Shown here: positions 32,455 to 49,480 of the stretch, in pieces
Numbering within the stretch: the stretch's first letter is position 1
How the letters are laid out: each line of letters opens with the position of its first letter
From: a virus
IMG/VR virus record: IMGVR_UViG_3300031949_000014
Reading direction: 5' to 3' (one strand)
Length of the DNA stretch: 64,000 bases
Position numbers and translations under genes: made by a program
The notes under the pieces: generated by a model
What the model was told of the DNA's origin: nothing
Databases searched by the model: none
Seen by the model: the letters and a program-made list of their open reading frames with translations, nothing else

Positions 32455-32457
32455 CGA

Positions 32458-33559: not shown

Positions 33560-33560
33560 G

Positions 33561-33761
33561 TCAGTGGTCATAAGTGCACGGACAGTCCGCCGTGAACTCC
33601 AACTCCATCTTGGCACCCTTCCGGCGCGCGGTGATGTACTTCTGCAAAGGGCGCGAGAAGTACACGTGGCGCTTCGCGTTGGAGTACTCCGGCAACGGTT
33701 CACCTTGGTAGCCTTGGATGTGGGTGTGGTAGTCGCCCAGCGGTACGGAGACCCGGGTCAT
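33561..33761 (-). CDS. Small hypothetical protein
   Basis: ATGA overlap. Confidence 0.55.
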   Translation of the reverse strand: MTRVSVPLGDYHTHIQGYQGEPLPEYSNAKRHVYFSRPLQKYITARRKGAKMELEFTADCPCTYDH

Positions 33762-35593
33762 ACGTACCTCGCCGTCATTCTCAACGCCGAAGGTATCACA
33801 GCCGGACGCGCGGCGGAACGCACGCAGGCAGTCTGGACGACCTGGAACATCTGGCGAGTTGCCTCCACCACGGTCATCCTCTTCAACCCGTGCGCTTGGT
33901 AGCAGAGGTCGAGCATGCGAGCCTTGTCATTCGAAGTAAGACACCCCGCCTGCACTGGATTTCCTGCCACCCAGTCGTCGAGGAGTTTCTTGCAGAACGC
34001 CTGCGCGACGTCGACTTTCGGTGCTTTTGGAATCGCTGGCACGAAGGGCCTCGCGGGTGCTTTGAACAACCCCGGCTGTCCCGGCACCGACGTCGGCACT
34101 TGTGCCGATGGTGCGCCGCCTTGGAGCTGTTTCAAGCGCGCGCAGGAAGCCTGGTCACCGATGACGCACCCGGCGCGAGCGGTCTTGATTTCGGCGGCGC
34201 GCGGGTCCGCTTGAATCTGCTTCTGCCCGTACGCCTGATGTCGCGCCTGGTCCGCCCGCATCGCTTTCAACCGCGTCTCCTCGGCTTGGATGATGCGGTT
34301 CATGACGTCGAACGTGAACTTGAGCCACTGCTGTGTCGCGGGCGTCTGCGCAGCCTGGAACGCGACGGCGGCCTTGGTGAACTCTGTCACCGCTTGAAAA
34401 CGTCCAACTAACCCGCGCTGCGCGGCAGCGGCGTACTTCTGCAATTCCGCCTGCCTCGCCTGAAGCTGGCTCACGAGTGTTGGGTAATCCCCGAACCTCT
34501 TCCAGTTACCGAAGACGTCGAGGTTCTCGGGCAACTTGTTGAACTCGTCGAGCGTGGCCGACACGGCCCAGAGCCCCATTGTTGCCGGCGTGCCCAACGA
34601 GAAGCTGATCGCTTCGCCACGGAGTTGTCGCAGGTATGTCGAGCACGCGACGGCTTCTCCGAGCCCACAACGTGCTCCAGACACAGCCCAAGACGTTCCA
34701 CCACCGAACGTCCCGCCAATTTCCTGCCTGAGTGCTCGCGCCTGCGGACTGTCTAACTGCCGTGTGGTCCAGGGGATGAGGCCCAAGGCGTCGATGCCTG
34801 CGGGCACGCTCGGACAAGACCATGGCGTCTTGCACTTGACCTGCGCCGGCGGCGGCTCTGCGGCGAAGAGCTTCGAGAACGGCTTCAGGATTGCCTTGGC
34901 GGCCGACAAGCTCAAACCAAGCGGCGTGAACTTCACGACGGTCGCGATGGCCTTGAACACCGGACTCTTCCGGATCAGGTTCTTGAGCACGTTGACGCCC
35001 AACGCGACGCCGATGCCGATGACAGTACCGAGCCCCGGCACGACAGAGCCCGCGGCCGCGCCGACGACGAGCGAGGTGAGCGCGCTCGCGGCAGCTTGTG
35101 CACCGACGGTCAACGCCGTGTCGAGCGCACCTTCGACGGACGTCGGCACGAGGCTGCCGAGGGTCTTGCCTATTTCTTTGGCGTTGAACTTCTTCGGGAA
35201 CGTGATGGGGATACCGATTTCAGCTTGAACAGCTTTCTCTCCGAGCTGCCTCGCAGTGTCGTACCCGGCCTGCGCGATGCCTTTGGCGCTGAAATCAGTC
35301 GGAACCGTGAAAGGGACTCCCGTAGCCTTCGATGCCTCTCGGACGCCATACGCGGCCGCGCTGCGTGCCGCACCGCCGACGGAGGTCGGCACCTGCCCAG
35401 GTAGACCTGTTCGCTGCCACGCCTGCTGTGCGCCGTACGCGGCCGCGCTCTTCACGGCGCCCTTCGCGCCGCCGGAGGCCGCACCTTGAGCTACCGCGAC
35501 GAGTGGCGCCGGCAGAGACGGGAAAGCCGGCAGCGCCGCGAAGCCGCCGCAGCTCCCGCACCCGCAACCGCTGCCGCAGCTTTCGAGGGCCAC
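33758..35593 (-). CDS. Large Ala/Gly-rich protein with hydrophobic glycine-zipper hairpin (candidate DNA-delivery/membrane protein)
   Basis: AGGAGG RBS; SAAAYG repeats; LVVGAAAGSVVPGLGTVIGIGVALG. Confidence 0.65.
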   Translation of the reverse strand: MALESCGSGCGCGSCGGFAALPAFPSLPAPLVAVAQGAASGGAKGAVKSAAAYGAQQAWQRTGLPGQVPTSVGGAARSAAAYGVREASKATGVPFTVPTDFSAKGIAQAGYDTARQLGEKAVQAEIGIPITFPKKFNAKEIGKTLGSLVPTSVEGALDTALTVGAQAAASALTSLVVGAAAGSVVPGLGTVIGIGVALGVNVLKNLIRKSPVFKAIATVVKFTPLGLSLSAAKAILKPFSKLFAAEPPPAQVKCKTPWSCPSVPAGIDALGLIPWTTRQLDSPQARALRQEIGGTFGGGTSWAVSGARCGLGEAVACSTYLRQLRGEAISFSLGTPATMGLWAVSATLDEFNKLPENLDVFGNWKRFGDYPTLVSQLQARQAELQKYAAAAQRGLVGRFQAVTEFTKAAVAFQAAQTPATQQWLKFTFDVMNRIIQAEETRLKAMRADQARHQAYGQKQIQADPRAAEIKTARAGCVIGDQASCARLKQLQGGAPSAQVPTSVPGQPGLFKAPARPFVPAIPKAPKVDVAQAFCKKLLDDWVAGNPVQAGCLTSNDKARMLDLCYQAHGLKRMTVVEATRQMFQVVQTACVRSAARPAVIPSALRMTARYV

Positions 35594-35602
35594 AAGGGCC
35601 TC

Positions 35603-37123
35603 CTACGCCGCAGCGATCGTTCGCATCGGCCTCATCATCGGTGCGACGCGGTTGCCGAGCAACGCCCGACGCACCATACGTGCGCGCGACAGAGCGACGC
35701 TCGCCGCCTGAGCCTTCTGCAAAGCCCGAGCACGCTGTGGCCACGACATCGCCGACACCGCACTGCGCGCGGCCGCGACGCCTTGCGCCTTCAACGCCTG
35801 GAGCTTGTTCTTGCCAGCGACGCGCGTGAACGCACCGACCTGGTTCGCGAACAACTTGCGCGTGAACGCGTTGTCGGAGACCGCGTCGAGCATGTCGGCG
35901 ACCGAGAGTTCTGCCAAACCCACCGTGCTGGGCAAGAGCGGCATGCGCGGCGCGTAGTTCGAGCCCCCGCCGTAGTTCGCGCCCTCGGAGGGGTCGATGA
36001 CGTTCGTGCGCGCCGTGCTGAACGGCGTCAGGTACCTCGACGGCGAGCTGCGGCCGGTGCCGGGGCCCGTCGGCGTCATGCTCGAGCCCGCGGCTTCGAA
36101 GTACGCGTCGAGCGACGCGAAGTCGCCGTACGTGTCCGCGCGGCCGGTCGGGATCGGTCCACCCGAGAGGCCGTGGAAGTCGGCGTACGTGTCGGCGCGA
36201 CCGGTCGGGAGTCCGCCAGCAAGACCAGCGTTCGAAGGCGTGAGCGGCATGCCGCCAGTCCACGACGAGCCGCCCGAGTACAGAGCGCCGCCGGAAGGGT
36301 CGATGACGTTCGTGCGCGGCGGCAGAACGCCGGTCGCGATGCTGCGCAGGTCTGCGTCGGCGAAGTCGCCGGCGAGGCCGACTGCACTGGGCATCACGGG
36401 CATACCCGGCGCCCAATTCGAACCGCCGCCGTAGTTCCCTCCTTCGGAAGGATCGATGACGTTGCGGCGCACCGTGGAGAACGGAGCGACGTAGCGGGAG
36501 GGGGAGCTGCGTCCGGTCGCCGGACCCGTCGGCGTCATGCTCATAGCATCGCCGTCGAGCGCCGCAAAGTCAACGTACGTGTCTGCGCGACCTGTTGGGA
36601 GGGGACCTCCGGCAAGACCGGAAAGAGGCATCTGCATCTGCTGAATCCACGATTGAACTCTGGCCCTCGGCAGAGTGGCGGGCCAAACATCCAAGACTTG
36701 CCCCGTTTTTGCGAGATAGACAAAGCTGTCTTCATACACGTCGTGGTGTTGCCCAGGTGTCGCTTGAGCAGCTTGCGTGGCTTTGATCAATTCGCGAAAG
36801 ATGCCCTGCGCTCTACCACGACCGTTCGTGCGCTGAACGCTCGTTGGTTGTTCTCCCCCGAGCACTTGAACCACCACGTACGGAGACACGGCTCCAAGAC
36901 CCCCCGCGAGGCCGATGCTGCTGGGCAACAACGGCATGCGCGGCGCGTAGTTTGACCCGCCGCCGTAGTTCGCACCTTCGGACGGGTCGATGACGCCGCT
37001 GCGCGCCGTCGAAAACGGCGTGAGATAGCGCGAGGGGGAGCTTCGCCCTGTCGAGAGGCCCGTCGGCGTCATGCCGTCCAAGCCGTCGAGTACGGCGATT
37101 TCGTCTCCCAAGTGCCTGCTCAT
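35603..37123 (-). CDS. Repeat-rich protein (putative polyprotein), 506 aa
   Basis: GGAGG RBS and ATGA overlap at 37123; VIDPSxG repeat x4, PTGRADTY repeat x3. Confidence 0.8.
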   Translation of the reverse strand: MSRHLGDEIAVLDGLDGMTPTGLSTGRSSPSRYLTPFSTARSGVIDPSEGANYGGGSNYAPRMPLLPSSIGLAGGLGAVSPYVVVQVLGGEQPTSVQRTNGRGRAQGIFRELIKATQAAQATPGQHHDVYEDSFVYLAKTGQVLDVWPATLPRARVQSWIQQMQMPLSGLAGGPLPTGRADTYVDFAALDGDAMSMTPTGPATGRSSPSRYVAPFSTVRRNVIDPSEGGNYGGGSNWAPGMPVMPSAVGLAGDFADADLRSIATGVLPPRTNVIDPSGGALYSGGSSWTGGMPLTPSNAGLAGGLPTGRADTYADFHGLSGGPIPTGRADTYGDFASLDAYFEAAGSSMTPTGPGTGRSSPSRYLTPFSTARTNVIDPSEGANYGGGSNYAPRMPLLPSTVGLAELSVADMLDAVSDNAFTRKLFANQVGAFTRVAGKNKLQALKAQGVAAARSAVSAMSWPQRARALQKAQAASVALSRARMVRRALLGNRVAPMMRPMRTIAAA

Positions 37124-37881
37124 GATGTCCTCCAGTTGCGTTTGTAGCGCTTTTTCGAGAATTTTCCTAGCCCCGCCAAGGCGGTCTTTCGTCGGTTCAA
37201 CCAGATGGCGAGCGCGCCGAGGCCGATGCCGCCCCAAATGACGGCGCTCTTCCAATCGGTGGGTCTCTCGGGTTCGAGCGCCTTGCACTCTTCGACCGTG
37301 AGCTTCTTCTCGAGGCACAGCTTCCGGAGCTTCTCCACGGAGCCGTAGTAGGTCTCCACCTCACCGTTGAGGACGTTGTCCAACCCCTGCGCGGCGACCG
37401 CGGCACCGCCCGCCACGGCGACCGCGGGAGTCCTCAAGAGCATGACGAGCCCTTCCCAGAGGGGTCCGGCAAAGCGCGCGGCCCAAGAGGCAACTTGCTC
37501 AAGGTCGCCGAAGCCTTGAAGCAGTCCCATGACACGTGCCGACCCCGCCGGGATGTCCGGCAACGGGGTCAACAACAAGTCGACAACCCGTTTTACGTTC
37601 GATGTTACCTCGGCGAAGTACGCCTCGAGCTCGCCGACGCGACCGAAGCCGGAGAAACCGACACCAGCGGTCTCGATGACACCTTGAAGCTTCGAATCCT
37701 TCTCGATGATGTCCGCGGCGCGCTGCTTCAAGCGCTCGGCCGCACGGAGCCAGTCCGCGTACGCCTCCAGCACCTCCGGACGAAGCGTGCCTCCGGCCAA
37801 GATCGCGGCATCGATGGCGGCGGAGAGCGGCCCGACGCTCTTGCCGAAGGACTGCAAGGTCGAGACAAGCTTTGTCCACAT
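37120..37881 (-). CDS. Helical protein with C-terminal TM and basic tail (start may be GTG 37923)
   Basis: Contains FSGFG, QGFGD and AGLGK; TM VIWGGIGLGALAIWL. Confidence 0.65.
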   Translation of the reverse strand: MWTKLVSTLQSFGKSVGPLSAAIDAAILAGGTLRPEVLEAYADWLRAAERLKQRAADIIEKDSKLQGVIETAGVGFSGFGRVGELEAYFAEVTSNVKRVVDLLLTPLPDIPAGSARVMGLLQGFGDLEQVASWAARFAGPLWEGLVMLLRTPAVAVAGGAAVAAQGLDNVLNGEVETYYGSVEKLRKLCLEKKLTVEECKALEPERPTDWKSAVIWGGIGLGALAIWLNRRKTALAGLGKFSKKRYKRNWRTS

Positions 37882-37909: not shown

Positions 37910-40510
37910 TCAGCGGCGAACACTGGATCGTCCCTTCGCCTTGAACTTCGGGGACACGCGCGACGTCCGCGCGGTCGACGTCGGGGGTTTGCTCTTCGAG
38001 AACGCAAGCGCGAGGCCGCCGGCGGCGGCGAGGCCCAGGAAGATCGCTCCAGCACCCATGCCGCCCTCTTCGGTGGCAGGGGGCGCGGGAGGAACGTCTG
38101 GCGGAGGAGCAACCGGACCATCGACCGGTGGCGCATCAGGAGGCGGCTGGTACGGAGGCGGCGCAATCGGAGGCGGAACGTCCGGCGGAAGCGGCTGGTA
38201 CGGAGGCGGCGCAATCGGAGGTGGTGGTTGCGGTTGCTCACCGCCTCCGTTGATCGGGGGCTTCTGGTCGAACAAGCCGAACTTCTGAGCTTGTTCAAAC
38301 TCTTGAGGATCGAGCTGCTCGCCCGCGGAGATCTTCCCCTGCAAGCACCCGCGCAAGTCGCCTCCTCGAGAGAAGCAGCTTCCACCGATTGGCGGATTCC
38401 CTCCGTACTGCTTCTCCAGCCAGATCTGCTCACCCTTCGCGACGACTTTACCTTGCGCCGCTGGCAACAAAATCGTCCGCGCATCCGACGACAAGAGGCG
38501 AGGCAACGCGCGCACGGTGATCTCGCGAAGCGTCGGAGTCATCTGAAACAGATCGAAGTAGGCCGCCTGCGTCGCATCGTCCCACGTGCCGCTCGCCACG
38601 ACCTTCGGGTACTTGTTCGTCACCATCAACGTGTGCTGCAGCGCGAGTACCGGTGTCGGCACAGTAGAGAGCTTGACGACAGCGTTGACCTCCGCATCTC
38701 CGGTCGGCTTCGACGGCTTCTTCGGCTCGACGATGCCGCCCGCTGCGGCCTTCAATGCCTCGTACGTGGCGGGGTTCACCGCCATCGTCACACCGTCGAC
38801 GCGCGAGACCCCCTGGTCGAGCTTGCGCCTGCGCGCTTGATCTTCCCACGCGCGCTTGGTGTCCGGACCCCACTTGCCGTCCGAGATCTTCCCTTTGGAA
38901 CCGAGCTTTCGAACGATGCCCTGACCCTCGGTCACCGAAATGTTGATGCTCCCAGCCGGCGTCGGCACAGGCTTCTTTCTGTCGTCCGGCACCGGTGCAC
39001 GCGCTGCCTCGTCCTTCAACCGAGCGTACGCGTCGGCATCCACGGCCATCGTCTTGCCGTCGATGCGCACGGCGTTCTGCGCGAGGCCGCGAGCCTTCGA
39101 TGCGCGCTGCCACGCGCCCTGCGTGTTCGCGCCGAACAGACCGTCGACGACCAGCGGTTTGCCGTTGTTCCCTGGAACACCGAGGGCCTTCAAGATGGTC
39201 TGAGCCTCGAAGACCGCGACTGGAACACCCGCGACAGTTGGCGGGAGCTTCTTCGGTTGGTCTGGCACCGGCGGCTTGTCTGCCTCGGTCTTCAAGCGGG
39301 CGAGCGTGTCGGCCGACACGGCCATCGTCTTGCCGTCGATGCGCGAGACACCGGAATTCAAACCGCGCTGCTTGGCTGCGGTCTCCCACGCAAACTGCGT
39401 GTTCTGACCGAAGAGCCCGTCGGTCTTCAGCGTCTTTTTGTCCTTCCCCTTCACCCCGAGTTTCACCAAGAGGATCTGAGCCTCGAATACAGAAGTCGCC
39501 ACAGCTCCAGCCGGCAAGCCTTTCGGCGCAGGCTTCGGTCCCTCAGGTGTCGTAGGCTTCTCGGGCGTGGGCGGCGCGGCCTTGGCGCCGTCGGCTTGGA
39601 TCTTGTCGTACGTCGCCTGACTCACTCGCGCGGTGCGCCCATCCACGCGCTCGAACGTCTGCGGCAGCCCACGGAGCTTCGCGGAGAACGCCCATGCAGT
39701 CTTGGTCTGCGGACCGTAGAGGCCGTCCTTCGTCAACTTCTTCGACGTCCAGCCCACGCCGTACAAGAGCTCTTGCAGCTCGAGCACCGGGCGTTCGACG
39801 GTGCCCGCGCGCGGCGCGGTCGCGGTCTCCTTCGGGATGCTCGGAGCCAGAGCCTTTGGTTGAGGCGTGCTCTTCGCGACGGCCTCGAGCGCGGCCAACG
39901 TCTGTTGGTTCACCGTGGCGGTCTTGCCGTCGACGCGCTCGAAGAGAGGCGAGAGGCCGCGCTTGGTGGCGGATTGAATCCAAGCTCCGCGCGTCGCAGG
40001 ACCGAACTTGCTGTCGGGGTTCACCTGCTTGGTCGTCCAGCCGAGGCGGTTCAAGAGGCGCTGCAGGTCGAGCACGGGGCGACGGACGGTGCCTGGAGCA
40101 CTGGGGGTGCCGGAAGGAAGCGCTGTAGGCGTTGACGTCGGCGATGCGGCCGACCACGCCGGGACCTGGTCGGTGTACGCCGGGCGCAAGTTCTGCACCG
40201 TGACCGGATGCACCCACGCCGTCTGCGGCCCTGCGCGGTCGAACGCCGGGTTCAGACCCTTCGAGATTGCCAGCTTCTGCCACGCCGCGCGCGTGTTCGG
40301 GCCGTAGAGTCCGGCACCGCCCGCGGTCAACAGAGTGCCGCTCGGGCTCTTCGTCACGCCGTTGGCTTCGAGAAGTTGCTGCGCCTCAAGCACGCTGAGC
40401 TGCGTGAGTCCCGACGACGCGGGCACGACGGTCGCCGAGAGCGCGTCGCCCGCGGAGAACTCGTCGAGGTAGCTCGACAGTCCCTGTAGGTCGTCGTAGC
40501 CGCGCATCAC
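37910..40510 (-). CDS. Seven-repeat peptidoglycan-binding-like protein with Pro-rich stalk and C-terminal TM
   Basis: Repeats such as VLELQELL...DGLYGPQTKTAW...FERVDGRTARV. Confidence 0.8.
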   Translation of the reverse strand: MMRGYDDLQGLSSYLDEFSAGDALSATVVPASSGLTQLSVLEAQQLLEANGVTKSPSGTLLTAGGAGLYGPNTRAAWQKLAISKGLNPAFDRAGPQTAWVHPVTVQNLRPAYTDQVPAWSAASPTSTPTALPSGTPSAPGTVRRPVLDLQRLLNRLGWTTKQVNPDSKFGPATRGAWIQSATKRGLSPLFERVDGKTATVNQQTLAALEAVAKSTPQPKALAPSIPKETATAPRAGTVERPVLELQELLYGVGWTSKKLTKDGLYGPQTKTAWAFSAKLRGLPQTFERVDGRTARVSQATYDKIQADGAKAAPPTPEKPTTPEGPKPAPKGLPAGAVATSVFEAQILLVKLGVKGKDKKTLKTDGLFGQNTQFAWETAAKQRGLNSGVSRIDGKTMAVSADTLARLKTEADKPPVPDQPKKLPPTVAGVPVAVFEAQTILKALGVPGNNGKPLVVDGLFGANTQGAWQRASKARGLAQNAVRIDGKTMAVDADAYARLKDEAARAPVPDDRKKPVPTPAGSINISVTEGQGIVRKLGSKGKISDGKWGPDTKRAWEDQARRRKLDQGVSRVDGVTMAVNPATYEALKAAAGGIVEPKKPSKPTGDAEVNAVVKLSTVPTPVLALQHTLMVTNKYPKVVASGTWDDATQAAYFDLFQMTPTLREITVRALPRLLSSDARTILLPAAQGKVVAKGEQIWLEKQYGGNPPIGGSCFSRGGDLRGCLQGKISAGEQLDPQEFEQAQKFGLFDQKPPINGGGEQPQPPPPIAPPPYQPLPPDVPPPIAPPPYQPPPDAPPVDGPVAPPPDVPPAPPATEEGGMGAGAIFLGLAAAGGLALAFSKSKPPTSTARTSRVSPKFKAKGRSSVRR

Positions 40511-40845
40511 GCCGCTTCCTTCTTCACGCTGAGCACGCCTTTACGCTTCTTCAACGCCGCGAGGCTCGCCACACGGTCAGGAAGCGTGTCGTACGCCTCA
40601 CGCGTCACCTTGGAATCGGCCCAACCCGTCTTCTTCAAGCGGGTGTTTTCCCAGCCGATGGTGCAACCCGAAGAGGAGCAACCCCCTTCTTTCTGAGCCC
40701 ACGGGCCTTTGCCCTTCGGGCGCGTCGAAGTCGACACGGGTTTCATCTTCCACGTCGGTGCCGGCGCAGATGCGGCCGCGCGCGACGGGCGCAACGCGTA
40801 GTACGCACCGCCTCCGAGCAACAGAAGAGCGAGCAACTCCTTCAT
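40507..40845 (-). CDS. Small membrane-anchored protein
   Basis: MKELLALLLLGGGAYYAL; TGATG overlap. Confidence 0.65.
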   Translation of the reverse strand: MKELLALLLLGGGAYYALRPSRAAASAPAPTWKMKPVSTSTRPKGKGPWAQKEGGCSSSGCTIGWENTRLKKTGWADSKVTREAYDTLPDRVASLAALKKRKGVLSVKKEAA

Positions 40846-41327
40846 CAGAACGACACCTTGGCGACGATAACCGGGATCGGCGTCGGCGGCGCGATGGCCG
40901 GCGTGAAGTCGTTCGCGCTCAGGGCCTGCGCGTAGAGTTGCTCGCCGGGCAAGAGCACGCACGAGTAGCGCAGGGTGTGCGTGGTGCCCAAGAGCTCGAC
41001 GACGCCGGTGGTGCCGACGCCCTCGCCGCCGCTGAAGCGCACGAGCGCCGTCGCGGGCGGGTCCGCATCCTCGGACTGCGGCACCCAGACCTCGACGTAC
41101 ATCGCTTCCTGCCCGTTGGGCTGGTTGGTGGCCAGCAGCACCGAGTCCGTGAATGGGACCTGCTTGGTCGCGCGGTTGCCGTGCGCGATGCGACGCGGGC
41201 CGAGCACGGCTGCGACATAGGCGCGCAGGTTGAGGTTCCCGCGGCCGGGGTCCTTGTTGAGGTCGAAGTTGAACCCCATCAACCGGTCGAGCCGGTCGAC
41301 CAAGGCGGCGAGCGTTTGTTCGAGCAT
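40845..41327 (-). CDS. Single jelly-roll-like minor capsid/penton candidate
   Basis: Beta-rich; VLLPGEQLYA. Confidence 0.5.
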   Translation of the reverse strand: MLEQTLAALVDRLDRLMGFNFDLNKDPGRGNLNLRAYVAAVLGPRRIAHGNRATKQVPFTDSVLLATNQPNGQEAMYVEVWVPQSEDADPPATALVRFSGGEGVGTTGVVELLGTTHTLRYSCVLLPGEQLYAQALSANDFTPAIAPPTPIPVIVAKVSF

Positions 41328-41346
41328 GGGGAGTCAGCCTCCCCGA

Positions 41347-41952
41347 CTACGTATTCCGCGGGGTGCAGGCGACGAGGTCGCCGACGATTTGGATGCCCAG
41401 CTCCTTCGTCGTTCCGACGAGAGCGGGCCAGCGTGCGGTGTCGACGAACCACGCGACATCGAGGTCCGTGCCTGGCACGGTGATGTACACGCCGTCGAAC
41501 TCGGTCGGCACGACGCCGCCCGGAGACAGCGTCGACTGCATCGACACCGGGCGCTTGAAGACGTCGAAGTTGCGGCCATTCTCGCGGATGTTGAAGTCGA
41601 CGAGGAAGGGTGAAGCGCCGGCGAGGTCCGGGTCCATCATGAAGCCGATGACCTTCCGGATGGCGAAGTTGTAACGCGAGACCAACGTCACCGCGTTGGT
41701 CTGGCGGACGATGTTGCCGGCGGGGTCGATCTGAACCGTGAACTTCAGGTCGTCGACGCGCATGTCCTCCGGCGCCAAGATGCCAGAAGCGAGGTCCGAG
41801 TAGAGCTGGACGAGCTGGCCGGGCGGGACCGGGACCCCGCGCAGGATGGGCATGCCCGCGGTCGGCACCTGCCCAGGAACGCCCATCTGAGGAGAACCTG
41901 CCGGCGCAATGCCGGGCGTGTCTCCGAACCCTCTCCGCATCGGCCAGTTCAT
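41347..41952 (-). CDS. Single jelly-roll-like capsid protein candidate
   Basis: YNFAIRKV...VDFNIRENGR...VFKRPV...ITVPGTDLDV...IQIVG. Confidence 0.55.
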   Translation of the reverse strand: MNWPMRRGFGDTPGIAPAGSPQMGVPGQVPTAGMPILRGVPVPPGQLVQLYSDLASGILAPEDMRVDDLKFTVQIDPAGNIVRQTNAVTLVSRYNFAIRKVIGFMMDPDLAGASPFLVDFNIRENGRNFDVFKRPVSMQSTLSPGGVVPTEFDGVYITVPGTDLDVAWFVDTARWPALVGTTKELGIQIVGDLVACTPRNT

Positions 41953-41983
41953 CGTGCTCCGGCAGGCTCACGAGGGGGGAGAC

Positions 41984-42021
41984 CGCCTTCCCCGGCCGGA
42001 GCCGAAAGCCCGGGGAAGGCG
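41984..42021 (-). terminator. 12-bp hairpin after the putative major capsid gene
   Basis: CGCCTTCCCCGG (41984-41995)/CCGGGGAAGGCG (42010-42021). Confidence 0.65.
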
Positions 42022-42036
42022 AGGTAACTGCCGCTA

Positions 42037-42702
42037 CTACTTCGAGACAGCCGCGCGGACGAGGCCGTGCAAGAAGTTCGTCGCGATGACGGGCTGCTCG
42101 ATGTCGGGGTTCGCGTAGGTGAGACCCACCGAAGCCAGTTGCGTCACGAGCCACTGACGCGCGTCGTAGGTGATGGTCCCGTCCAGTTCGTGGTTCTGGT
42201 TCAGGAGCTGCTTCTTCACCAAGCGAGCGGCCGAGGCCGTCGCCGGCACGCCGACGGAGATGATGCCCGAGTCCACTTCGGTCGACTGACCGTAGAGGCC
42301 ATAGCCCGAAGGGAACTTCACGATCGGACCTTCGTCCTGCAAAATTCCGTTGATGGCGAGACGGTAGAAACCGTTCTCGACGATCTTCTTGACGTCGCGC
42401 GGCACGGTCACCACGTCGCCGGTGGCGAGGCGGAAGTACAGGCCGATGCGATCGAGCACCATCGACTCGCCCGCGGACAGCTTGCGGGGGGTCTTGATGT
42501 TCGTGTCGACGTTGCGCTTGCCCTGCACGTCGTTGAAGAAAGTGAACTCGGTGCCCGCCGTGATTACTCCCGGCAAGACCACGATCGAGTCGTACTTGTC
42601 CGACTCGCGGAAGTCGCGGATGTTGACGATCTCACCGCTCTGGTCGTTCCGGTAGAGACCGGGCTGACCTTCGATCGGCTGCAAAACGGGCACCTGATTC
42701 AT
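42037..42702 (-). CDS. Putative major capsid protein (single jelly-roll)
   Basis: YDS...FTFF...GK..DTN...LSAGESMVLDRIG pattern; strong RBS, double stop, downstream hairpin. Confidence 0.55.
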   Translation of the reverse strand: MNQVPVLQPIEGQPGLYRNDQSGEIVNIRDFRESDKYDSIVVLPGVITAGTEFTFFNDVQGKRNVDTNIKTPRKLSAGESMVLDRIGLYFRLATGDVVTVPRDVKKIVENGFYRLAINGILQDEGPIVKFPSGYGLYGQSTEVDSGIISVGVPATASAARLVKKQLLNQNHELDGTITYDARQWLVTQLASVGLTYANPDIEQPVIATNFLHGLVRAAVSK

Positions 42703-42808
42703 CGGGCTTTCTCCTCTGTACCTATTCCCCTCTTTCGGAGGGTGAATGGCTTTGGTTGCGTGTCTTCAGTCAGAAATCGTTGTCTCTCAAACCTCAGACG
42801 TTCTTCTC

Positions 42809-43393
42809 TCAGGCCATCCAGGGGCCGTAGCCCCCGAGCGTCTCTTGCTGCGTCACGACGCCGCCGAAGCCCATCAAGGCCTCGGGCGTCACGGTCGGGT
42901 CAGCGAACTGTCCGCGCGCGAACGCGCCGGGTGAGCCCTGCACGTTCACCGCTTCGAGGGCCGAGAGCGCGCCGCCGTTGTACGCGCCCAAGAGCGCGAG
43001 GTCACCGGCCGACAGCTCGGACGAGTCCGGCATCTGGCCGAGCGGGTTGCCGCCACCGAGCAGATTCGCATCGACGTAGGAGTCGATGAGCTGCGCGAGG
43101 GCGAGACCGCCGACGCCGCCGATGACGGCGATCGCCGCATCGCGGTTGTAGTCCCACAACATGCGAGCCGCGAGGCCCGCTCCGACCAGCGCGAGGCCCG
43201 CGCGCAAGCGGTGCTGGTTCGGCTCCGACCACGTCGAAGGAGTCGGCAGCTTCGGCATCGCCCAAGCGGCCAACAGAATCGCGCCGGCGCCTGCGCCCGC
43301 GGCGATCACTTGCTCCTGCAACATCGCAGGAGTCATGAACGCGCCCATGTCGTCGTAGAGGCCCATGCCCATGTCGTCGTAGTCGCGAAGCAT
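42809..43393 (-). CDS. Multi-TM membrane protein upstream of the putative MCP
   Basis: GGAGG RBS; three hydrophobic helices. Confidence 0.7.
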   Translation of the reverse strand: MLRDYDDMGMGLYDDMGAFMTPAMLQEQVIAAGAGAGAILLAAWAMPKLPTPSTWSEPNQHRLRAGLALVGAGLAARMLWDYNRDAAIAVIGGVGGLALAQLIDSYVDANLLGGGNPLGQMPDSSELSAGDLALLGAYNGGALSALEAVNVQGSPGAFARGQFADPTVTPEALMGFGGVVTQQETLGGYGPWMA

Positions 43394-43466: not shown

Positions 43467-45149
43467 TCAAGTCGGAAAGATTCGCGACGCGTCGACCATC
43501 GCCTTCGGAGCTTCCCAACCCACAGGCATGTTGACGGAAGCGTCGAACGAAATCCACTTCTTCGGATTCCTACGCGGGTGACCGACCTGCGCGTAGATGT
43601 GATTCCACTCCGGCGAACCCTTCGTCCTGATGACCTTGAACCGACAAGGTAAACCCAGAGTCGCGGCCGAAGCGCAGGTCAAAACAGAGTAATCATCGCA
43701 GTTGTGAACGATGACATCTTGCTCGGGCAAGTAGAACCTGTGGCTGTCGGTTTCGATGTCGTACACAGGCACGTAGTCGCCCTCGGAAATGCTGCGCACC
43801 TTAGCCCACGGACGAGAGAAATTATCCACCCGAACCGTGACCCGATAGATCGGGTTGAGCCCAAACCCACCGTGCTCAGTCACACGCTTTATGGACGTAC
43901 TTCTGCCGCAGATGCGTTGGAGGATCCTGTACTGGACCGCGAGCAACTTCGACGTCGTAGAGAACACGAAATTCTTACCGCTGGTCGAAAACCCACCGTC
44001 CGCGCTCAAGCCTTCGAGCAGCTTCTCCGCGGTCTGTTTTGACCATCGCGTGTGAGGTAACTGCTTGTGGACAGCCGTGGTGCCGCAACCGGAGAAGAGC
44101 TTTGCTACCGCACCTGGGCCCGCGTCTCCATCTGACAAGTAGATCTCGCGCTCGTGCTCCCGCACAGTGAACCCGAGACTCTTGGCGTGCTTTGCCGCCT
44201 TCTCGCGGATGCCTTTGCCGTTGCATACCCCCGCGATTCCGACGCACGCGAGCGCACCATCCACACGAAACCGACGACGACTTCCCTCGGCCAAATAGGC
44301 CCCTAGAAGAAAAGCCTCGTCGTCGGACAGCTCTTGTGTGTCGGAGAAAGCTGTCTCGCGAGGCTGCAACAAATCGTTGCCCGGCCGCACAGCACTGGCC
44401 AGCACCTCTTCAACCTGTGCGAACCCTCCTGCCCTCCCACTCTGTTGAGGAACGCGGAATAGCTTGTGGCCTTCAGTGCAACGCAACACCGAGCCGTTGT
44501 TCAGTTCCAAATCCAGAGTTGACTGGATTCCCTTGTCCCACCAGTTCGTGACCTTCGCCCAACCTGTGCCGTCGAAGATGACCTCGCCGACCTTGATGTC
44601 TTCGATGGCGACCAAGAGGCCGTCCGCGCGCAAGAGCTGCGTTCCCTCCGGCAAGCAATCCCCAGTGCGCAGCTTCAACGTGTGCCTGGGCGCCTGGTAG
44701 GAATCGATGCCGGCGATGTCGGACGTGTACCGGACGTTCCCGCGGATGGCTTGGAAGAGGGCTTTGATCTCGGCGAGGTTGTCCTTCTCCGGGACACACC
44801 AGTTGGAGCCGCATTTCTTGTTCACCGCGCGGCGCGCGAACTCGTAGACGACGGGGTCTCGCTTGCCTTGCTCGACGAGCTTGCGGAGGTACTCGATGCG
44901 CTCGTCCAAGTTCTTGATCTGGTGGGTCTTCAGCCGAATGTCCCCTGACGGCGTCTTCGCGTGTTGCCCTTCGAAACCTCTGACGTAAGTGCTGGACGAA
45001 GACCGCGCCGAACCTCGTCCCGAAGTACGGCTAGCACGTTGACTCCGTGTCGTGTTTGACGGGGAGCTTAGGTGCCGGGCCCCGACGGAAAGCTGCCGGA
45101 GGCCGAGCACCACGGACGCCAAACCCAGCACGACGTTACCGAGCGCCAC
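43467..45149 (-). CDS. Transglutaminase-like Cys protease interrupted by an intein
   Basis: Spliced RTGD-CDDY; NHIY; FDAS; N-terminal hydrophobic anchor. Confidence 0.85.
   Translation of the reverse strand: MALGNVVLGLASVVLGLRQLSVGARHLSSPSNTTRSQRASRTSGRGSARSSSSTYVRGFEGQHAKTPSGDIRLKTHQIKNLDERIEYLRKLVEQGKRDPVVYEFARRAVNKKCGSNWCVPEKDNLAEIKALFQAIRGNVRYTSDIAGIDSYQAPRHTLKLRTGDCLPEGTQLLRADGLLVAIEDIKVGEVIFDGTGWAKVTNWWDKGIQSTLDLELNNGSVLRCTEGHKLFRVPQQSGRAGGFAQVEEVLASAVRPGNDLLQPRETAFSDTQELSDDEAFLLGAYLAEGSRRRFRVDGALACVGIAGVCNGKGIREKAAKHAKSLGFTVREHEREIYLSDGDAGPGAVAKLFSGCGTTAVHKQLPHTRWSKQTAEKLLEGLSADGGFSTSGKNFVFSTTSKLLAVQYRILQRICGRSTSIKRVTEHGGFGLNPIYRVTVRVDNFSRPWAKVRSISEGDYVPVYDIETDSHRFYLPEQDVIVHNCDDYSVLTCASAATLGLPCRFKVIRTKGSPEWNHIYAQVGHPRRNPKKWISFDASVNMPVGWEAPKAMVDASRIFPT
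43701..44657 (-). mobile_element. 319-aa intein with LAGLIDADG homing endonuclease
   Basis: C1-LPEGTQL, CTEGHKLF (block B), LLGAYLAEGS, LLEGLSADGG, VYDIET, VIVHN then C+1. Confidence 0.93.
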
Positions 45150-45176: not shown

Positions 45177-47318
45177 CTACGCAACGGTGCCGTCATCCGC
45201 GCCTTCCGCGTCGGACGCGGGCGGAGAGATCTCGTTCTCGTCTTCGGGTGTCTCTTGTTCTTCGGCATCCGCTCGCGCCTCGGCGAGCTGTTGCACGTGC
45301 GTGACGAGCTCTTCGAAGTGCGCGTCGACTGCGGCAAACGCCCGTTCCGCGACTTCGTTCTGCAAGAGGTTGCTCTTCACGAGACCGCCGACGAGCTGAC
45401 GCACGTAGCGCAGAGCCACTTCCTTGTTGCCTGTGCTGATCGCGTCGAGCGTCGTGTTCCCGACGCCGCTCCACGGCTCGTAGATGCTCGACAGGTAGAG
45501 CAAGAACTCAACCGTCGCCTCGACAAGCGCGCCGTCGTCTTGCGCGATGATGAAGCCGTTGATGTGCTCGACGATGTTTGGTGGAAGGCCCGGCGTCGCG
45601 GGCGGCTGCATCTTCGCAGCGGCCTCTGGTGTTGCCGTCGCGGGCGGAGGCGTGACGACGGCTGTCGGCGCGGCTGCAACGGTCGCAGGCGGTGTGCCAG
45701 CGGTGAGCCCGAGGCGTGCTTCTTCCTCGGCGAGCTTTCGCTCTTCGATGGCGAGCCTGCGACGCGCAACGTCTGCTGCTCGTGCCTGCACGTCAGCCGG
45801 AATCTGTTGGGGTTGTTGCTGTTGCGGCTGAGGTTGTGACTGCACAACCTTCGCCGTCGCCGTTTGTCCCGACTTCGCGCGGATGAGCCCGGCGACCGAA
45901 CCGACGAGCTCGCGGTTCGAGAGGGCGCCGCCCAAGATGTCGCCCCACATGCTGCCAGCAGAAGGCTCGGTCTGCTGTCGCATCGTGGAGACCGCCTGCA
46001 TGATGCCGGTGAAGTTGTCCATCGACTTCTTGAAATCGTCGGTGCCTTTTTCCCCGCGGAGCTGGTTCACCAGGCCGATGATGTCGGCGGTGGACATGCG
46101 GTCTCGGTTCATCTGCTCGAGCAGAATCGGCGTGAGATTGTCGGCGGGCTTCAAGGCCACGAGCACGGCTGCGATGCCTTGGAGCTGGGCCATCGGGTCC
46201 GGCGGCGTGACCATCGGCGGCATTGGAGCGCTCGAACCTTTGTCGTCGAGCAACTTCGCGAGCAACGTCATCATGACGGGGTCGGCTTCCTTGCGTCCAA
46301 GGATCGACATGAGTTGCATCATGCGTTCTTCGGACTTCTGCTGCTGCTGGGTCATCACCTGCAGCATCGTGGCGGTCTGCTGTCCCATCGCCTGGACCAT
46401 CGCGACGACGGTGTCGCCTTTGCCGGAGCCACCGGAGAGCTTCTCGCTGAAGTCGTGAATCTTGGTGAGCTGCTCGATCGGGTCCGTCGGGTCGTTCTTC
46501 TTCTCCATAATTTCGCGCAGCTCTCGGTCGCGGCGTTGGCCGTCGCGTTCGATCTGCCGCATGAGTAAGTCCCCGAGGCCGCCTTCGCCGCGGCCCCCAC
46601 CGCCGCTATGTCCTCCGTCGGTCGGTTCCACGGTGCCCAGAATGCGGACGACGCCTGCATCCAGACGCTTGCCGTCGGAAGTGATGCCGAAGATTTGATA
46701 GTCCCCCGCCCCGTACTGTGGCTTGGCGTAGCGGTTGAGGAACGAGGCCATGCCCTGCGACTGCGCGAGGTCAGCGGCGTTGTAGTCGCCGACGTAGCCG
46801 AGCTGGCCATTGTCGGAGCGCTTCCAGACTTCGAAGTGCTCGGCGCCGGGGATCTTGTTCCCAAGAATCGTCCCGAGCTTCTTCAACGCCTGTGTCGTGG
46901 CCGGGCGTAGCTCTCGAAGCTCCGGCACTTGCGGAAGCTCTTCTTCCTCCGACGCAGCTACCGCTGCTTTCTGTCCGCGCGGCTTGCGTGTTCTCGGTTG
47001 CGTCTGTGGCGGCGTTGCGGGTCGCGCGAGAGGCGAGGGCGCGGCTGGCGCGGGCGTTTCGTCCGAGAGATCTTCCGACGGCGCTTCTTCGCCCGTCGAC
47101 GACGGCTGCTCGTCTTCACCTTCACCTCGGACCTCCTCTTCGTCAGACGGATCTTCCGCCGGCGCCTCTTCGACCACTGCCGCACGAGCGACACGACGCG
47201 CGCTCCCGCGCTCTTCGAGCTCGCTGAGGTCGAGATTCGGCGGCGCGGCGGGCGCCTTCTTCGTGCGCGTGCGGGTGCGAGGGGCCTCGGTCGTCACGGT
47301 GTCGGCTTCAAGCGTCAT
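45177..47318 (-). CDS. Large low-complexity hypothetical protein (713 aa)
   Basis: AGGAG RBS inside the recombinase 3' end; acidic/Pro-rich N-terminus and Gln/Met-rich middle. Confidence 0.75.
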   Translation of the reverse strand: MTLEADTVTTEAPRTRTRTKKAPAAPPNLDLSELEERGSARRVARAAVVEEAPAEDPSDEEEVRGEGEDEQPSSTGEEAPSEDLSDETPAPAAPSPLARPATPPQTQPRTRKPRGQKAAVAASEEEELPQVPELRELRPATTQALKKLGTILGNKIPGAEHFEVWKRSDNGQLGYVGDYNAADLAQSQGMASFLNRYAKPQYGAGDYQIFGITSDGKRLDAGVVRILGTVEPTDGGHSGGGGRGEGGLGDLLMRQIERDGQRRDRELREIMEKKNDPTDPIEQLTKIHDFSEKLSGGSGKGDTVVAMVQAMGQQTATMLQVMTQQQQKSEERMMQLMSILGRKEADPVMMTLLAKLLDDKGSSAPMPPMVTPPDPMAQLQGIAAVLVALKPADNLTPILLEQMNRDRMSTADIIGLVNQLRGEKGTDDFKKSMDNFTGIMQAVSTMRQQTEPSAGSMWGDILGGALSNRELVGSVAGLIRAKSGQTATAKVVQSQPQPQQQQPQQIPADVQARAADVARRRLAIEERKLAEEEARLGLTAGTPPATVAAAPTAVVTPPPATATPEAAAKMQPPATPGLPPNIVEHINGFIIAQDDGALVEATVEFLLYLSSIYEPWSGVGNTTLDAISTGNKEVALRYVRQLVGGLVKSNLLQNEVAERAFAAVDAHFEELVTHVQQLAEARADAEEQETPEDENEISPPASDAEGADDGTVA

Positions 47319-48189
47319 CGGTCTCTCCTTGGGCTCTGCCCACTGCGGCAACGATTTCGTCTTCACCGATTGCCAGGTAGTGCCGCATCAGCGTGCTGAC
47401 GTCGGCGTGCCCGGCGAGCTTGGCGAGGACGATCGGGTCCACGCCCTTCTTGTAGAGGTTAGTGAGGTAAGTCCGCCTGAACGTGTGCGGAGTGAACTCC
47501 TGCCCATCGTCGCGCAGGCTCGAGACAGCAACGCGCAGCGTGTGCCCCGCTATGTGGCCCTTTTGGCGCCCAGGGAAGAGCCAGCGCTTGTCTGGGAGCT
47601 TCTTTCGCCAGCCGAGGTACTCGTGCAAGACTTCGATGCCCTCGAGCAGGGGGACCACGCGCTGGTGCCCGCCTTTACCTTCGACCTTCAGGCAGTACAC
47701 CTCGCGCCGTCCGTCTTTGAACTTCACCGGCACGCGCTTGAGACAGTGGTACGAGAGCGTCACGACCTCGCCGGAGCGCAGGCCCGTGTACGGCAAGAGC
47801 ATCGCCGCGGTGCGCGTTGGCTCGCCGAGGCGGTCTTCCGCGGCCTCCAGATACGCCTCGAGGTCCTCGTCGCTCAAGACCTCGCGCACGCGGCGCACGA
47901 CGCGCAGCTTCTCCGGCGCGTGTAGCTCCGGCACGTCGATGCCCTGGAGCTTGAGCCAGCGCACGTAGCGCCGCACGCCCGCGACTTTCACATTCACGGT
48001 CGAGGGCGAGCATCCGTCGGCCAGGAGCATCGAGCAGTAGTCCGACAGCACGTTGGGCGAGACCTTCGTGATGTCGCGCACGTCGGTCTCTTCGAGCCAG
48101 CGATAGAAGCGCCCTACCGCGTAGTAATACTGGTACGCGGTCTCCTCGCGACGCACGGACTTCATGTGCTCTAGAAACTTCGTGCTCAT
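47308..48189 (-). CDS. Tyrosine recombinase/integrase (XerC/D-like)
   Basis: YTGLRSGEV, KGKGGHQR, TPHTFRRT, LAGHADVSTLMRHY. Confidence 0.92.
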   Translation of the reverse strand: MSTKFLEHMKSVRREETAYQYYYAVGRFYRWLEETDVRDITKVSPNVLSDYCSMLLADGCSPSTVNVKVAGVRRYVRWLKLQGIDVPELHAPEKLRVVRRVREVLSDEDLEAYLEAAEDRLGEPTRTAAMLLPYTGLRSGEVVTLSYHCLKRVPVKFKDGRREVYCLKVEGKGGHQRVVPLLEGIEVLHEYLGWRKKLPDKRWLFPGRQKGHIAGHTLRVAVSSLRDDGQEFTPHTFRRTYLTNLYKKGVDPIVLAKLAGHADVSTLMRHYLAIGEDEIVAAVGRAQGETDDA

Positions 48190-48643
48190 TACTGCCGAAG
48201 TTGCACTCGTCGTTACGCTCTGCACGAAGAGGACTTTTGCCGAAAAAAACGCAGATGTCGATCTCGGAAGTTACGTTGTACTTACGTCTTAGGTTCACGC
48301 TCGGTTTCTCAACGTACTGGTTCTTCTGCGGACGTTGAGCGGCGAAAGTACGGACAGAAGTGCAACGGCGACGGCGAAAACGGACCGGCGTTGACGTTCT
48401 CGCGCGTTCGTGTTATCGCGATAGCGCTACGCGCACGACGCGGTTCACTGCACCGCAAGTGGTGGCAATGCGCGCCACGGTGCCGCCGACGGTGACGACG
48501 AAGCGCGCGCCGGGCTCGCGCGGAAGTGTTGGTGGTGTTCAGTGACGGTGCGCGCCGTCGTTTTCGCGCCGCGACTCTTGAAGGATCGCGCAGGTAAGCG
48601 TAGGGTTTGACTCAGCGACGCCCACCGTCGCGGAAGAGGCGAG

Positions 48644-49477: not shown

Positions 49478-49480
49478 TTC

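Follow-up and report, generated by a model that had tools for sequence, protein, structure and literature searches.

A candidate single-jelly-roll capsid module in a lineage of large, presumably tailless viruses of bacteria

Described tailless viruses and the locus

In the Halopanivirales, formerly treated as Sphaerolipoviridae and including P23-77, IN93, SH1, HHIV-2 and HCIV-1, two adjacent small capsid genes lie beside genes for membrane proteins, which resembles the arrangement of the candidate genes described here. The two genes encode single-jelly-roll major capsid proteins, and the virion has an internal lipid membrane with a major membrane protein. The genome of P23-77 comprises 17 kb, compared with 70-108 kb in the present lineage, and that of SH1 about 31 kb. 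In the annotation of P23-77 the packaging ATPase gene adjoins the capsid genes, and the conserved core of the Halopanivirales includes an FtsK/HerA-type ATPase in this position (PMC5332951).

SPV1 (Portogloboviridae) has a hyperthermophilic archaeal host (Sulfolobales) and a circular genome of about 20 kb without replication genes. Two small jelly-roll proteins, VP4 as hexamers and VP10 as pentamers, make up its shell; beneath it lie a lipid layer and a condensed nucleoprotein core. According to the ICTV profile of its family no packaging ATPase is among the assigned gene functions. Mini-CRISPR arrays that serve conflict between viruses are also present in SPV1 (PMC8459092).

SSIP-1 infects bacteria, has no tail and contains a membrane; two capsid protein types have been reported for it (PMC6356626, PMC5332951). 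Structural genes for proteins of 130-260 aa (gp44-gp48) follow one another in its genome, and gp40, a structural protein bearing a Walker A motif, is read here as the likely packaging ATPase. PRD1 (Tectiviridae) also lacks a tail, possesses an internal membrane and carries enzymes in its virion that degrade the cell wall, and may be likened to the present lineage in these respects; however, its linear, protein-primed genome of 15 kb encodes the P9 ATPase and, as its one capsid protein, the double-jelly-roll protein P3, neither of which was found in the lineage. To our knowledge all cultured bacterial viruses with genomes of 70-108 kb are tailed phages that pump their DNA into a preformed HK97-fold head.

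The stretch analysed here (the window) comprises 64,000 nucleotides of viral DNA (IMG/VR record IMGVR_UViG_3300031949_000014). Three complete relatives (G001-G003) have 83-102 kb and terminal repeats, and the contigs of the lineage as a whole range from 70 to 108 kb. No published description of it was found, in line with the original prediction of an uncharacterised and unusually large lineage. We consider it probable (roughly 0.6) that three adjacent genes of the window, encoding P221, P201 and P160, specify shell proteins of the single-jelly-roll type, and that the lineage consists of large bacterial viruses which contain a membrane but have neither a tail nor a known motor.

The conserved gene block

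The genes of P221, P201 and P160 are part of a block which extends from an integrase gene to the gene of a 100-aa protein with two TM segments and represents the only syntenic set common to the window and the three complete relatives. Its features are, in minus-strand order:

47308..48225, minus strand: tyrosine recombinase/integrase at the head of the block (Pfam Phage_integrase, E 1.7e-23; 39-41% identity and syntenic in G001-G003)
45177..47366, minus strand: 729-aa acidic core protein (30-48% identity in G001-G003)
43467..45149, minus strand: transglutaminase-like enzyme of the papain fold, anchored in the membrane and split by an intein (Pfam Transglut_core, 7.8e-8; Intein_splicing; LAGLIDADG_3)
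42809..43393, minus strand: 194-aa acidic multi-pass membrane protein (2-3 TM segments; TM at 29-47 and 85-103)
42703..42808, minus strand: intergenic leader of the P221 gene with a strong Shine-Dalgarno sequence (GAGGAG 8 nt before the ATG at 42702)
42037..42702, minus strand: P221, predicted jelly-roll protein of 221 aa (GC3 0.88; 280 homologues)
41984..42036, minus strand: additional stop codon of the P221 gene, then a GC-rich hairpin resembling a terminator or attenuator
41347..41952, minus strand: P201, candidate second shell protein of 201 aa (168 homologues; jelly-roll core at residues 65-195)
40845..41327, minus strand: P160, beta-rich core protein of 160 aa (31-43% in G001-G003)
40507..40845, minus strand: small basic membrane protein (starts MKELLALLLLGGGAYYAL...; coordinates derived from the ORF table)
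37910..40510, minus strand: 866-aa protein in which peptidoglycan-binding domains recur, anchored by a C-terminal TM segment (Pfam PG_binding_1, 1.2e-13; PHROG endolysin families)
35603..37318, minus strand: 571-aa basic repeat protein (31-45% in G001-G003; pI 10.2)
31222..35593, minus strand: remaining block genes, namely a 611-aa TM protein, a 66-aa protein, several small TM proteins and the 100-aa two-TM protein (TM scan)

The original prediction had read from the window the order protease, multi-TM protein, beta proteins of 221, 201 and 160 aa, and many anchored proteins. This order was reproduced on the minus strand, where the transglutaminase-like enzyme is followed by the multi-pass membrane protein, by P221, P201 and P160, and by membrane-anchored proteins, and a hydropathy scan places most of the TM proteins of the window at 31-45 kb. 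The succession of transglutaminase-like enzyme, TM protein, P221-like and P201-sized genes is kept even in a distant relative (E 3e-12); in the distant relative L029 a 218-aa gene occupies the position of the 194-aa membrane protein.

The ORFs of P221, P201 and P160 show the highest third-position GC content in the window (0.88-0.93). This coding signal, together with the many homologues in a 90%-identity protein-cluster database (those listed above and 12 of P160), indicates real genes rather than chance ORFs. No gene of the lineage is better conserved than that of P221 (65-68% to the three complete relatives), and the homologues of P221 form 232 clusters at 50% identity. The strong ribosome-binding site, double stop and 12-bp hairpin attributed to it beforehand are all present: GAGGAG lies in the upstream gap of 106 nt, the gene stops with TAG TAG (42039-42034), and 3' of it a GC-rich stem of 11-13 bp (GCCTTCCCCGG / CCGGGGAAGGC, about 41984-42022) reaches -41.6 kcal/mol within an 88-nt stretch. 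A strong stem-loop follows the P221 gene in nine of nine genomes (the window and the eight relatives examined), and in several of them T runs come next.

The homologues of P160 have 134-144 aa; as the conserved part begins near residue 20, the true start of P160 may be Met17. Its stop codon overlaps the ATG of the small basic membrane protein by one base (TGATG). The 194-aa membrane protein, encoded directly upstream of the capsid candidates and kept in G002 (51%) and partly in G003, is a candidate for the major virion membrane protein. The transglutaminase-like enzyme bears an N-terminal TM segment according to the hydropathy scan, and its intein carries a LAGLIDADG nuclease. No Pfam or PHROG family matched the 729-aa protein, which has a disordered N-terminus and a long Met/Gln-rich region, helical-looking by eye, and is possibly a scaffold or core protein; nor did any match the 571-aa basic repeat protein. 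The TM segment of the 866-aa protein (819-837) lies in a protein conserved in all three complete relatives, as are the 66-aa and the 100-aa two-TM proteins. Several small, very basic proteins are also encoded. Other genes specify LQxRAG paralogues of 273-330 aa and a 277-aa beta protein.

Predicted folds and sequence links

The AlphaFold models of P221 (AF2, pLDDT 71.5) and P201 (pLDDT 69.4 overall and about 90 in the core) are both of moderate confidence, mostly beta and predicted as jelly rolls, the N-terminal 45 aa of P201 being variable and poorly modelled. Chains of SPV1 are the best well-covering solved matches of both P201 (6oj0_A, Z 9.2 over 128 aa) and P221 (6oj0_Z, Z 6.9 over 127 aa, rmsd 3.8); the fold scores are middling (Z 6-9) and all lie in a range which, according to the aligner's own note, is common for unrelated jelly rolls. 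The chain matched by P201 is presumably VP4, and SPV1 is also the top match of P201 in Foldseek (probability 1.0), while its BFVD matches include SPV1 VP4. P201 furthermore aligns to the capsid proteins of SH1 (Z 7.0), HHIV-2 (6.8), HCIV-1 (6.7) and P23-77 (VP17, 7.1; VP16, 6.0), so that the comparison with the major capsid proteins of P23-77 and SH1 lies at Z 6.0-7.1. The rest of the P221 match list consists mostly of viral jelly-roll capsid proteins; those of P23-77, SH1, HHIV-2 and HCIV-1 are not among the matches listed. In agreement with the single-jelly-roll module that had been suggested, both models show a jelly roll, and where the alignment covers well, the best solved matches belong to capsid proteins with a single jelly roll from icosahedral viruses that contain a membrane. 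As modelled, P221 appears to be the strongest candidate for the main component of the shell.

Jelly rolls occur widely in proteins other than those of capsids, and by rmsd the top matches of P201 are the cores of nucleoplasmin-type pentameric jelly rolls (Z 8-9.3 over 90-97 aa, rmsd 2.3-2.9). P221, P201 and P160 might be other abundant beta-sandwich proteins, for example spikes, membrane-proximal matrix proteins or a pentameric chaperone of the nucleoplasmin kind for basic DNA-condensing proteins. The virus would then have no icosahedral shell of jelly rolls and could be enveloped or pleomorphic, to which the small, very basic proteins, the many TM proteins and the lack of a packaging motor would be suited. 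We regard this as unlikely, since the nucleoplasmins cover 90-97 residues whereas SPV1 covers 128-132 of the roughly 135-residue P201 core, and since P221 and P201 both match chains of one solved virus shell. Moreover, the annotations of known membrane-containing icosahedral phages show a matching layout, in which small structural genes adjoin one another in the neighbourhood of genes for membrane proteins and lytic enzymes.

At the sequence level, neither hhalign profiles nor a profile search of all PDB sequences revealed similarity of P221, P201 or P160 to known capsid proteins, and P221 and P201 show no detectable relationship to each other. The hhalign probabilities stayed below 2% against VP16 and VP17 of P23-77 and reached 2.5% at best against 29 SSIP-1 proteins including gp44-gp48. 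The profile of P160 aligned weakly with P31, the penton protein of PRD1 (score 23.6, E 0.003, 81 columns; 0 of 120 shuffles reached the score), a weak lead by which P160 could be a vertex or penton protein. Pfam PRD1_P5_spike_N (PF08948) was not matched.

The sole sequence link to a cultured virus is that between the transglutaminase-like enzyme and the structural protein gp34 of SSIP-1. In a tblastn search of 50,697 phage records gp34 was the only match of the intein-less enzyme homologue of G001 (locus L001; E 3e-4), and in local tblastn searches gp34 gave E values of 2e-11 (G003), 3e-10 (G002), 5e-8 (G001) and 7e-7 (window).

Missing tail genes and packaging motor

The absence of terminase, portal and tail genes from the 64 kb, as stated in the original prediction, agrees with PHROG and Pfam scans of about 90 window ORFs. 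A 187-aa protein (51693-52256) accounts for the single "tape measure" label in the window through its M23 peptidase domain. Likewise, an HK97 major capsid protein, terminase and tail genes, which the original prediction had named as counter-evidence, were found neither in the three complete relatives nor in the regions flanking the module on sibling contigs.

It could be envisaged that the virus is tailed, that its genes for head, portal, terminase and tail have diverged beyond recognition, and that the beta proteins are cement or decoration proteins or parts of a baseplate or fibre, in view of fold matches to the phage cement protein KHP40 (Z 7.1 for P201), Pam1 (6.4), the KP1 baseplate (6.6) and the 7-7-1 fibre (6.9). 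Terminally repetitive double-stranded DNA genomes of 80-100 kb are characteristic of tailed phages, and the automatic taxonomy of related Atlas clusters is Uroviricota. This explanation nevertheless seems improbable. The Pfam families Terminase_6N, TerL_ATPase, Phage_capsid, Phage_portal and FtsK_SpoIIIE are all absent from the three complete genomes, and no head or tail family occurred in the best 25 of the 106 PHROG families matched by 91 G002 ORFs or in a direct scan of ten unassigned G002 ORFs. The G002 ORFs of at least 400 aa encode replication and modification enzymes or else the peptidoglycan-binding protein, the 729-aa homologue and a GP88-like protein, and besides the 729-aa homologue and the peptidoglycan-binding protein no unassigned ORF of terminase, portal or tape-measure size is common to all genomes. 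In addition, accessory proteins are seldom the most conserved genes of a lineage.

A packaging ATPase had been expected outside the window; this expectation was not borne out, as no FtsK/HerA-type ATPase was detected in the three complete relatives. Sequence searches of these genomes also yielded no ATPase of the PRD1 P9, P23-77 or SSIP-1 gp40 type, although a strongly diverged ATPase that lacks the canonical Walker A motif could escape them. Canonical Walker A motifs are confined to the RecD2 and D5 helicases. The P23-77 ATPase gave no tblastn match, and no gp40 homologue was matched by tblastn in the window or the complete relatives.

That the element is a non-viral plasmid or integrative element with surface or secreted beta proteins is very improbable: a conserved tyrosine recombinase heads the block and related contigs occur in MAG bins of several phyla, but these contigs, from five unrelated phyla, are as long as the entire element (73-96 kb), in keeping with free genomes assigned to the wrong bins, phage-type replication genes and lysins are carried, and no conjugation genes were found among the ORFs scanned.

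The suggested Halopanivirales-like plan holds in part. The jelly-roll matches of P201 to P23-77, SH1, HHIV-2 and HCIV-1 are compatible with it. The nearest structural match is SPV1, and with no packaging ATPase recognised in sequence searches one defining feature of the Halopanivirales is missing. None is listed for SPV1 in its profile either. Unlike SPV1, the lineage has genomes of 70-108 kb that encode PolA, D5 primase, helicases and lysins, with genes for peptidoglycan-binding and M23 lysin proteins. The PG_binding_1 repeats and the M23 peptidase of the 187-aa protein point to hosts with peptidoglycan, i.e. bacterial ones. The genome of SSIP-1 has half the size.

From the syntenic core status of the module, its gene order, the expression signals, the predicted SPV1-like folds, the lack of other particle genes, the clustering of TM proteins and the gp34 link we infer a capsid role of P221, P201 and P160 and a membrane in the particle. 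P221 would be the main capsid protein, produced in excess, with the conserved hairpin after its gene proposed to limit read-through. P201 would serve as second single-jelly-roll shell protein, and P160 might form the vertices. The 194-aa membrane protein, the anchored transglutaminase-like enzyme and the downstream peptidoglycan-binding and TM proteins would populate the internal membrane and help the virus to enter or leave the cell across the bacterial wall. The genome of 70-108 kb would be enclosed without a terminase or FtsK/HerA-type motor; perhaps the DNA is condensed first and the shell then assembled around it, as proposed for SPV1. In the absence of tail genes, a tailed-phage capsid gene and a recognisable motor, the particles seem to be built and filled unlike those of known large bacterial viruses.

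Only tentatively, and at somewhat less than even odds, we suggest that the genomes represent an undescribed bacterial lineage of high rank with a jelly-roll shell over a membrane, dsDNA of 70-108 kb and no NTP-driven packaging motor, a five-fold larger counterpart of the SPV1 plan; in this view the cultured SSIP-1 would be distantly related to the lineage and still possess an ATPase.

The lineage is widespread in soil and sediment, where its genomes are now labelled as tailed phages or binned into MAGs of unrelated phyla, and P221, with its 232 clusters at 50% identity and high conservation, would be usable as its marker gene. If the proposed reading is true, the size range of tailless membrane viruses would be extended several-fold, the motor-less enclosure of DNA would not be confined to archaeal viruses, and the evolutionary link between single- and double-jelly-roll capsids would gain a bacterial anchor.

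Conservation and layout of the putative capsid gene block

We favour the reading (probability roughly 0.6) that the three beta-rich proteins P221, P201 and P160 (221, 201 and 160 aa) are structural proteins of a large, tailless virus that has an internal membrane and belongs to a lineage without a recognisable packaging motor. P221 and P201 would be its single-jelly-roll shell proteins, and P160 would either join the shell or form the vertices. The window represents 64 kb of the 91.6-kb contig of this uncultured high-GC virus, and the three proteins are encoded in a tightly packed minus-strand block at about 31 to 48 kb:

47308-48225, minus strand: tyrosine recombinase at the head of the block
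45177-47366, minus strand: 729-aa acidic protein, helical in appearance by eye
43467-45149, minus strand: transglutaminase-like enzyme with a membrane anchor and an interrupting intein
42809-43393, minus strand: 194-aa multi-pass membrane protein
42037-42702, minus strand: P221, small, without transmembrane segments
41347-41952, minus strand: P201, small, without transmembrane segments
40845-41327, minus strand: P160, small, without transmembrane segments
start overlapping the stop of P160, minus strand: small transmembrane protein
minus strand: 866-aa protein carrying peptidoglycan-binding repeats and, at its C-terminus, a transmembrane anchor
rest of the block, minus strand: 571-aa basic repeat protein, 611-aa transmembrane protein and several small transmembrane proteins

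No Pfam or PHROG family was found for P221, P201, P160, the 194-aa membrane protein or the 729-aa protein. The third-position GC content of the three beta-rich proteins (0.88-0.93) is at the top of the window. The sequence details originally noted for P221 were recovered, namely a Shine-Dalgarno sequence (GAGGAG, 8 nt before the start and behind a 106-nt gap) and a double stop (TAG TAG) followed by a GC stem of 11-13 bp. The window and each of the eight relatives inspected have a strong GC-rich stem-loop directly 3' of the P221-like gene; the stem-loops differ in sequence, and several are followed by T runs. We infer that this element is a conserved terminator or attenuator which would raise the dose of P221 over that of the downstream genes, as is often seen with major capsid genes.

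A 90%-identity protein-cluster database contains 280 homologues of P221. Apart from the window's own protein, 119 of them were listed (62-78% identity, 209-227 aa), many of which lie on contigs of 70-108 kb. Among 1.8 billion representatives, a profile search assigned 232 clusters at 50% identity to this family. For P201 and P160 there are 168 and 12 homologues, respectively, the conserved part of P160 comprising about 136-144 aa. No description of this lineage was found in the literature.

Three complete relatives with direct terminal repeats are available: G001 (101.9 kb), G002 (82.7 kb) and G003 (88.8 kb). According to a tblastn comparison of all window proteins with these genomes, essentially the only syntenic set common to all four is one block in the order recombinase, 729-aa protein, transglutaminase-like enzyme, membrane protein, P221, P201, P160, peptidoglycan-binding protein, repeat protein, 66-aa protein and 100-aa transmembrane protein. 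P221 is its most conserved member (65-68% in the three relatives). A locus from another relative (E 3e-12) follows the same order with the enzyme, a 218-aa protein, the P221-like protein, proteins of 197, 237 and 430 aa and a lytic transglycosylase, and further carries PolA and sugar-modifying genes. The ends of the G002 record form an exact direct terminal repeat of 123 bp, which could stem from genome circularity, overlapping assembly ends or genuine terminal redundancy.

Inteins with LAGLIDADG nucleases reside in different genes in sibling viruses. In the window the intein splits the transglutaminase-like enzyme (43467-45149) and the RecD2 helicase is intein-free; in G002 it is found in the RecD2 helicase (77357-80641; L010:1357-4641 in the extracted locus), and the enzyme matches of all three complete relatives seemingly lack an intein (241 aa in G001). 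The recombinase adjoins a divergently transcribed trio (48644-50632, plus strand) for which no families were found. It encodes a beta-rich 277-aa protein with two seemingly similar halves, a 122-aa protein kept in G001, G002 and G003 and a 260-aa protein kept in the latter two, and may specify further particle proteins.

Predicted folds of P221, P201 and P160

The AF2 model of P221, built on a 31-row alignment, is mostly beta (pLDDT 71.5), and that of P201 (pLDDT 69.4) contains a core (residues 65-195) near 90 and 45 poorly modelled N-terminal residues. In a Foldseek search against the PDB the top match of P201 was Sulfolobus polyhedral virus 1 (SPV1, Portogloboviridae; probability 1.0, E 3e-3), followed by HHIV-2 and HCIV-1 capsid chains (probability 0.96), with nothing at E <= 0.001 for either model. 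SPV1 VP4 was also among the P201 matches in a viral model library.

By VIA-align, whose own calibration means that the following Z scores do not prove kinship, P201 matched SPV1 chain 6oj0_A (Z 9.2, 128 aa, rmsd 3.7) as well as SH1 (7.0), HHIV-2 (6.8), HCIV-1 (6.7) and P23-77 VP17 (7.1) and VP16 (6.0); nucleoplasmin-type pentameric jelly rolls reached Z 8-9.3 with only 90-97 aa covered, and phage cement proteins about 7; P221 matched best, in both VIA searches, a second SPV1 chain (6oj0_Z, Z 6.9, 127 aa), followed at Z 5-6 by capsid jelly rolls of satellite viruses, nanoviruses, nodaviruses, PRD1, PBCV-1 and iridoviruses. With moderate confidence, the models thus point to a jelly-roll-type fold of both proteins, leaning towards viral shell proteins. 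In this respect the single jelly rolls of the original prediction are supported for P221 and P201 at the level of predicted fold, and kinship with known capsid proteins is not established by the scores.

Among Swiss-Prot models only generic beta-sandwiches (BcsB, C1q, FlhE) were matched, and the ESM Atlas matches were confined to unnamed clusters of the family itself. When the P221 and P201 family alignments were searched as profiles against all PDB sequences, only chance-level matches emerged. The two alignments are unrelated to each other by sequence (hhalign), and P221 had no tblastn match among 50,697 phage records, which do not include SPV1. A complex prediction for P221 and P201 (residues 45-201; score 0.00, no control runs) is uninformative either way. 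The generic matches would suit a non-icosahedral virion in which P221, P201 and P160 are other abundant beta-sandwich proteins, and the SPV1 and other capsid matches speak for shell proteins; we regard the former as a rather unlikely alternative.

The P160 profile gave an 81-column alignment with P31, the penton protein of PRD1 (score 23.6, E 0.003; 120 shuffled controls: best 20.4, mean 11.7, sd 2.5), a match which is borderline after correction for about 40 targets tried and for which Pfam gave no confirmation. A vertex function of P160 is hence a lead only. A feature-based link to PRD1_P5_spike_N (0.76-0.87) likewise found no support in Pfam and was discarded.

Search for packaging and tail genes

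The Pfam families Terminase_6N, TerL_ATPase, Phage_capsid (HK97), Phage_portal and FtsK_SpoIIIE had no match in the three complete relatives, and control genomes were matched. Most G002 ORFs of at least 400 aa encode replication or modification enzymes (D5-type primase-helicase, PD-(D/E)XK nuclease, SNF2/DEAD helicase, family-A DNA polymerase, C5 methylase and the intein-bearing RecD2 helicase), the remainder being the peptidoglycan-binding protein, the counterpart of the 729-aa protein and a GP88-like protein. When 91 ORFs of G002 were scanned against PHROG, 106 families matched; no head or tail family was present among the best 25 (E down to about 3e-23), nor did one turn up when ten mid-size ORFs without assignment were scanned directly. 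About 90 window ORFs likewise gave none, one "tail length tape measure" label aside. This label is due to the M23 peptidase domain of a stand-alone 187-aa metallo-endopeptidase (51693-52256, plus strand), which also draws a "minor head protein" label and is probably a lysin.

The contig outside the window was viewed via sibling contigs. Besides small genes, one flank encodes an HTH protein and a further recombinase, and the other carries D5, nuclease and helicase replication genes. Canonical Walker A motifs are confined to the RecD2 and D5 helicases, and no counterpart was found of the packaging ATPases of PRD1 and P23-77 or of the Walker-A structural protein gp40 of the cultured membrane phage SSIP-1. 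The expectation of a packaging ATPase outside the window is not borne out by these sequence searches of the sibling flanks and complete relatives. The HK97 capsid, terminase and tail genes that would have spoken against the original prediction were found in neither the complete relatives nor the sibling flanks, so its test for refutation was negative. A tailed phage would have to be very divergent to fit these absences, and we consider it improbable.

The block-heading recombinase (47308-48225) is kept in every relative, and a sibling contig has a second one upstream of the window. In a terminase-less virus, the block-heading enzyme might serve to resolve replication products, either instead of integration or in addition to it. 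A 407-aa protein (11488-12711, minus strand; Pfam GP88, E 5e-18) is 48% identical in G002 and was not found in G001 or G003. In a close sibling contig an AcrVA2-like gene (anti-CRISPR family) adjoins the D5 primase gene and may belong to a rich arsenal for conflict in the lineage.

Hosts and relation to known viruses

Among species-representative genomes, six related contigs were met, each a virus-sized MAG contig (73-96 kb), in bins of five phyla (with Gemmatimonadota, Armatimonadota, Actinomycetota and Chloroflexota among them, and including Fimbriimonadaceae, Acidimicrobiia and Anaerolineae). Since they are virus-sized and spread over bins of several phyla, their placement, which singles out no host, is likely a binning error which would mislead host assignment. 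A non-viral element is highly improbable despite this placement in cellular bins. The peptidoglycan-binding repeats and the M23 peptidase indicate bacterial hosts. In a cellular-protein library, the AlphaFold DB cluster entry A0A0F6YGY4, an uncharacterised 165-aa protein, shares 46% identity with the P201 core (E 2e-13, TM 0.63/0.76); it may derive from a provirus of some sequenced organism and would then indicate a host.

Among the 50,697 phage records the intein-less enzyme of G001 matched one virus, SSIP-1, through gp34 (E 3e-4), which is annotated as a structural protein and matches all four genomes in a local tblastn (2e-11 to 7e-7). SSIP-1 is a tailless, membrane-containing virus of a halophilic bacterium with two reported capsid protein types, and is structurally grouped with sphaerolipoviruses (PMC6356626, PMC5332951). 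The P221, P201 and P160 family alignments showed no profile similarity (hhalign) to 29 SSIP-1 proteins including the structural proteins gp44-gp48, and nothing beyond the weak P160-P31 match to PRD1 P3/P5/P9/P31 or P23-77 VP11/VP16/VP17/ATPase. The lineage thus has one virion enzyme of the gp34 type in common with SSIP-1 and, having no recognisable packaging ATPase, departs from Halopanivirales in that feature.

Candidates for DNA condensation in a motor-less virus are an 87-aa protein (51439-51702, plus strand; 26% Arg+Lys, 65% identical in G002) and a 72-aa protein with two transmembrane segments and an Arg-rich tail (20566-20784, plus strand; GC3 0.93, kept in G002 and G003). If P221 and P201 form the shell of a tailless virus with an internal membrane, SPV1 would be the system that this lineage works most like.
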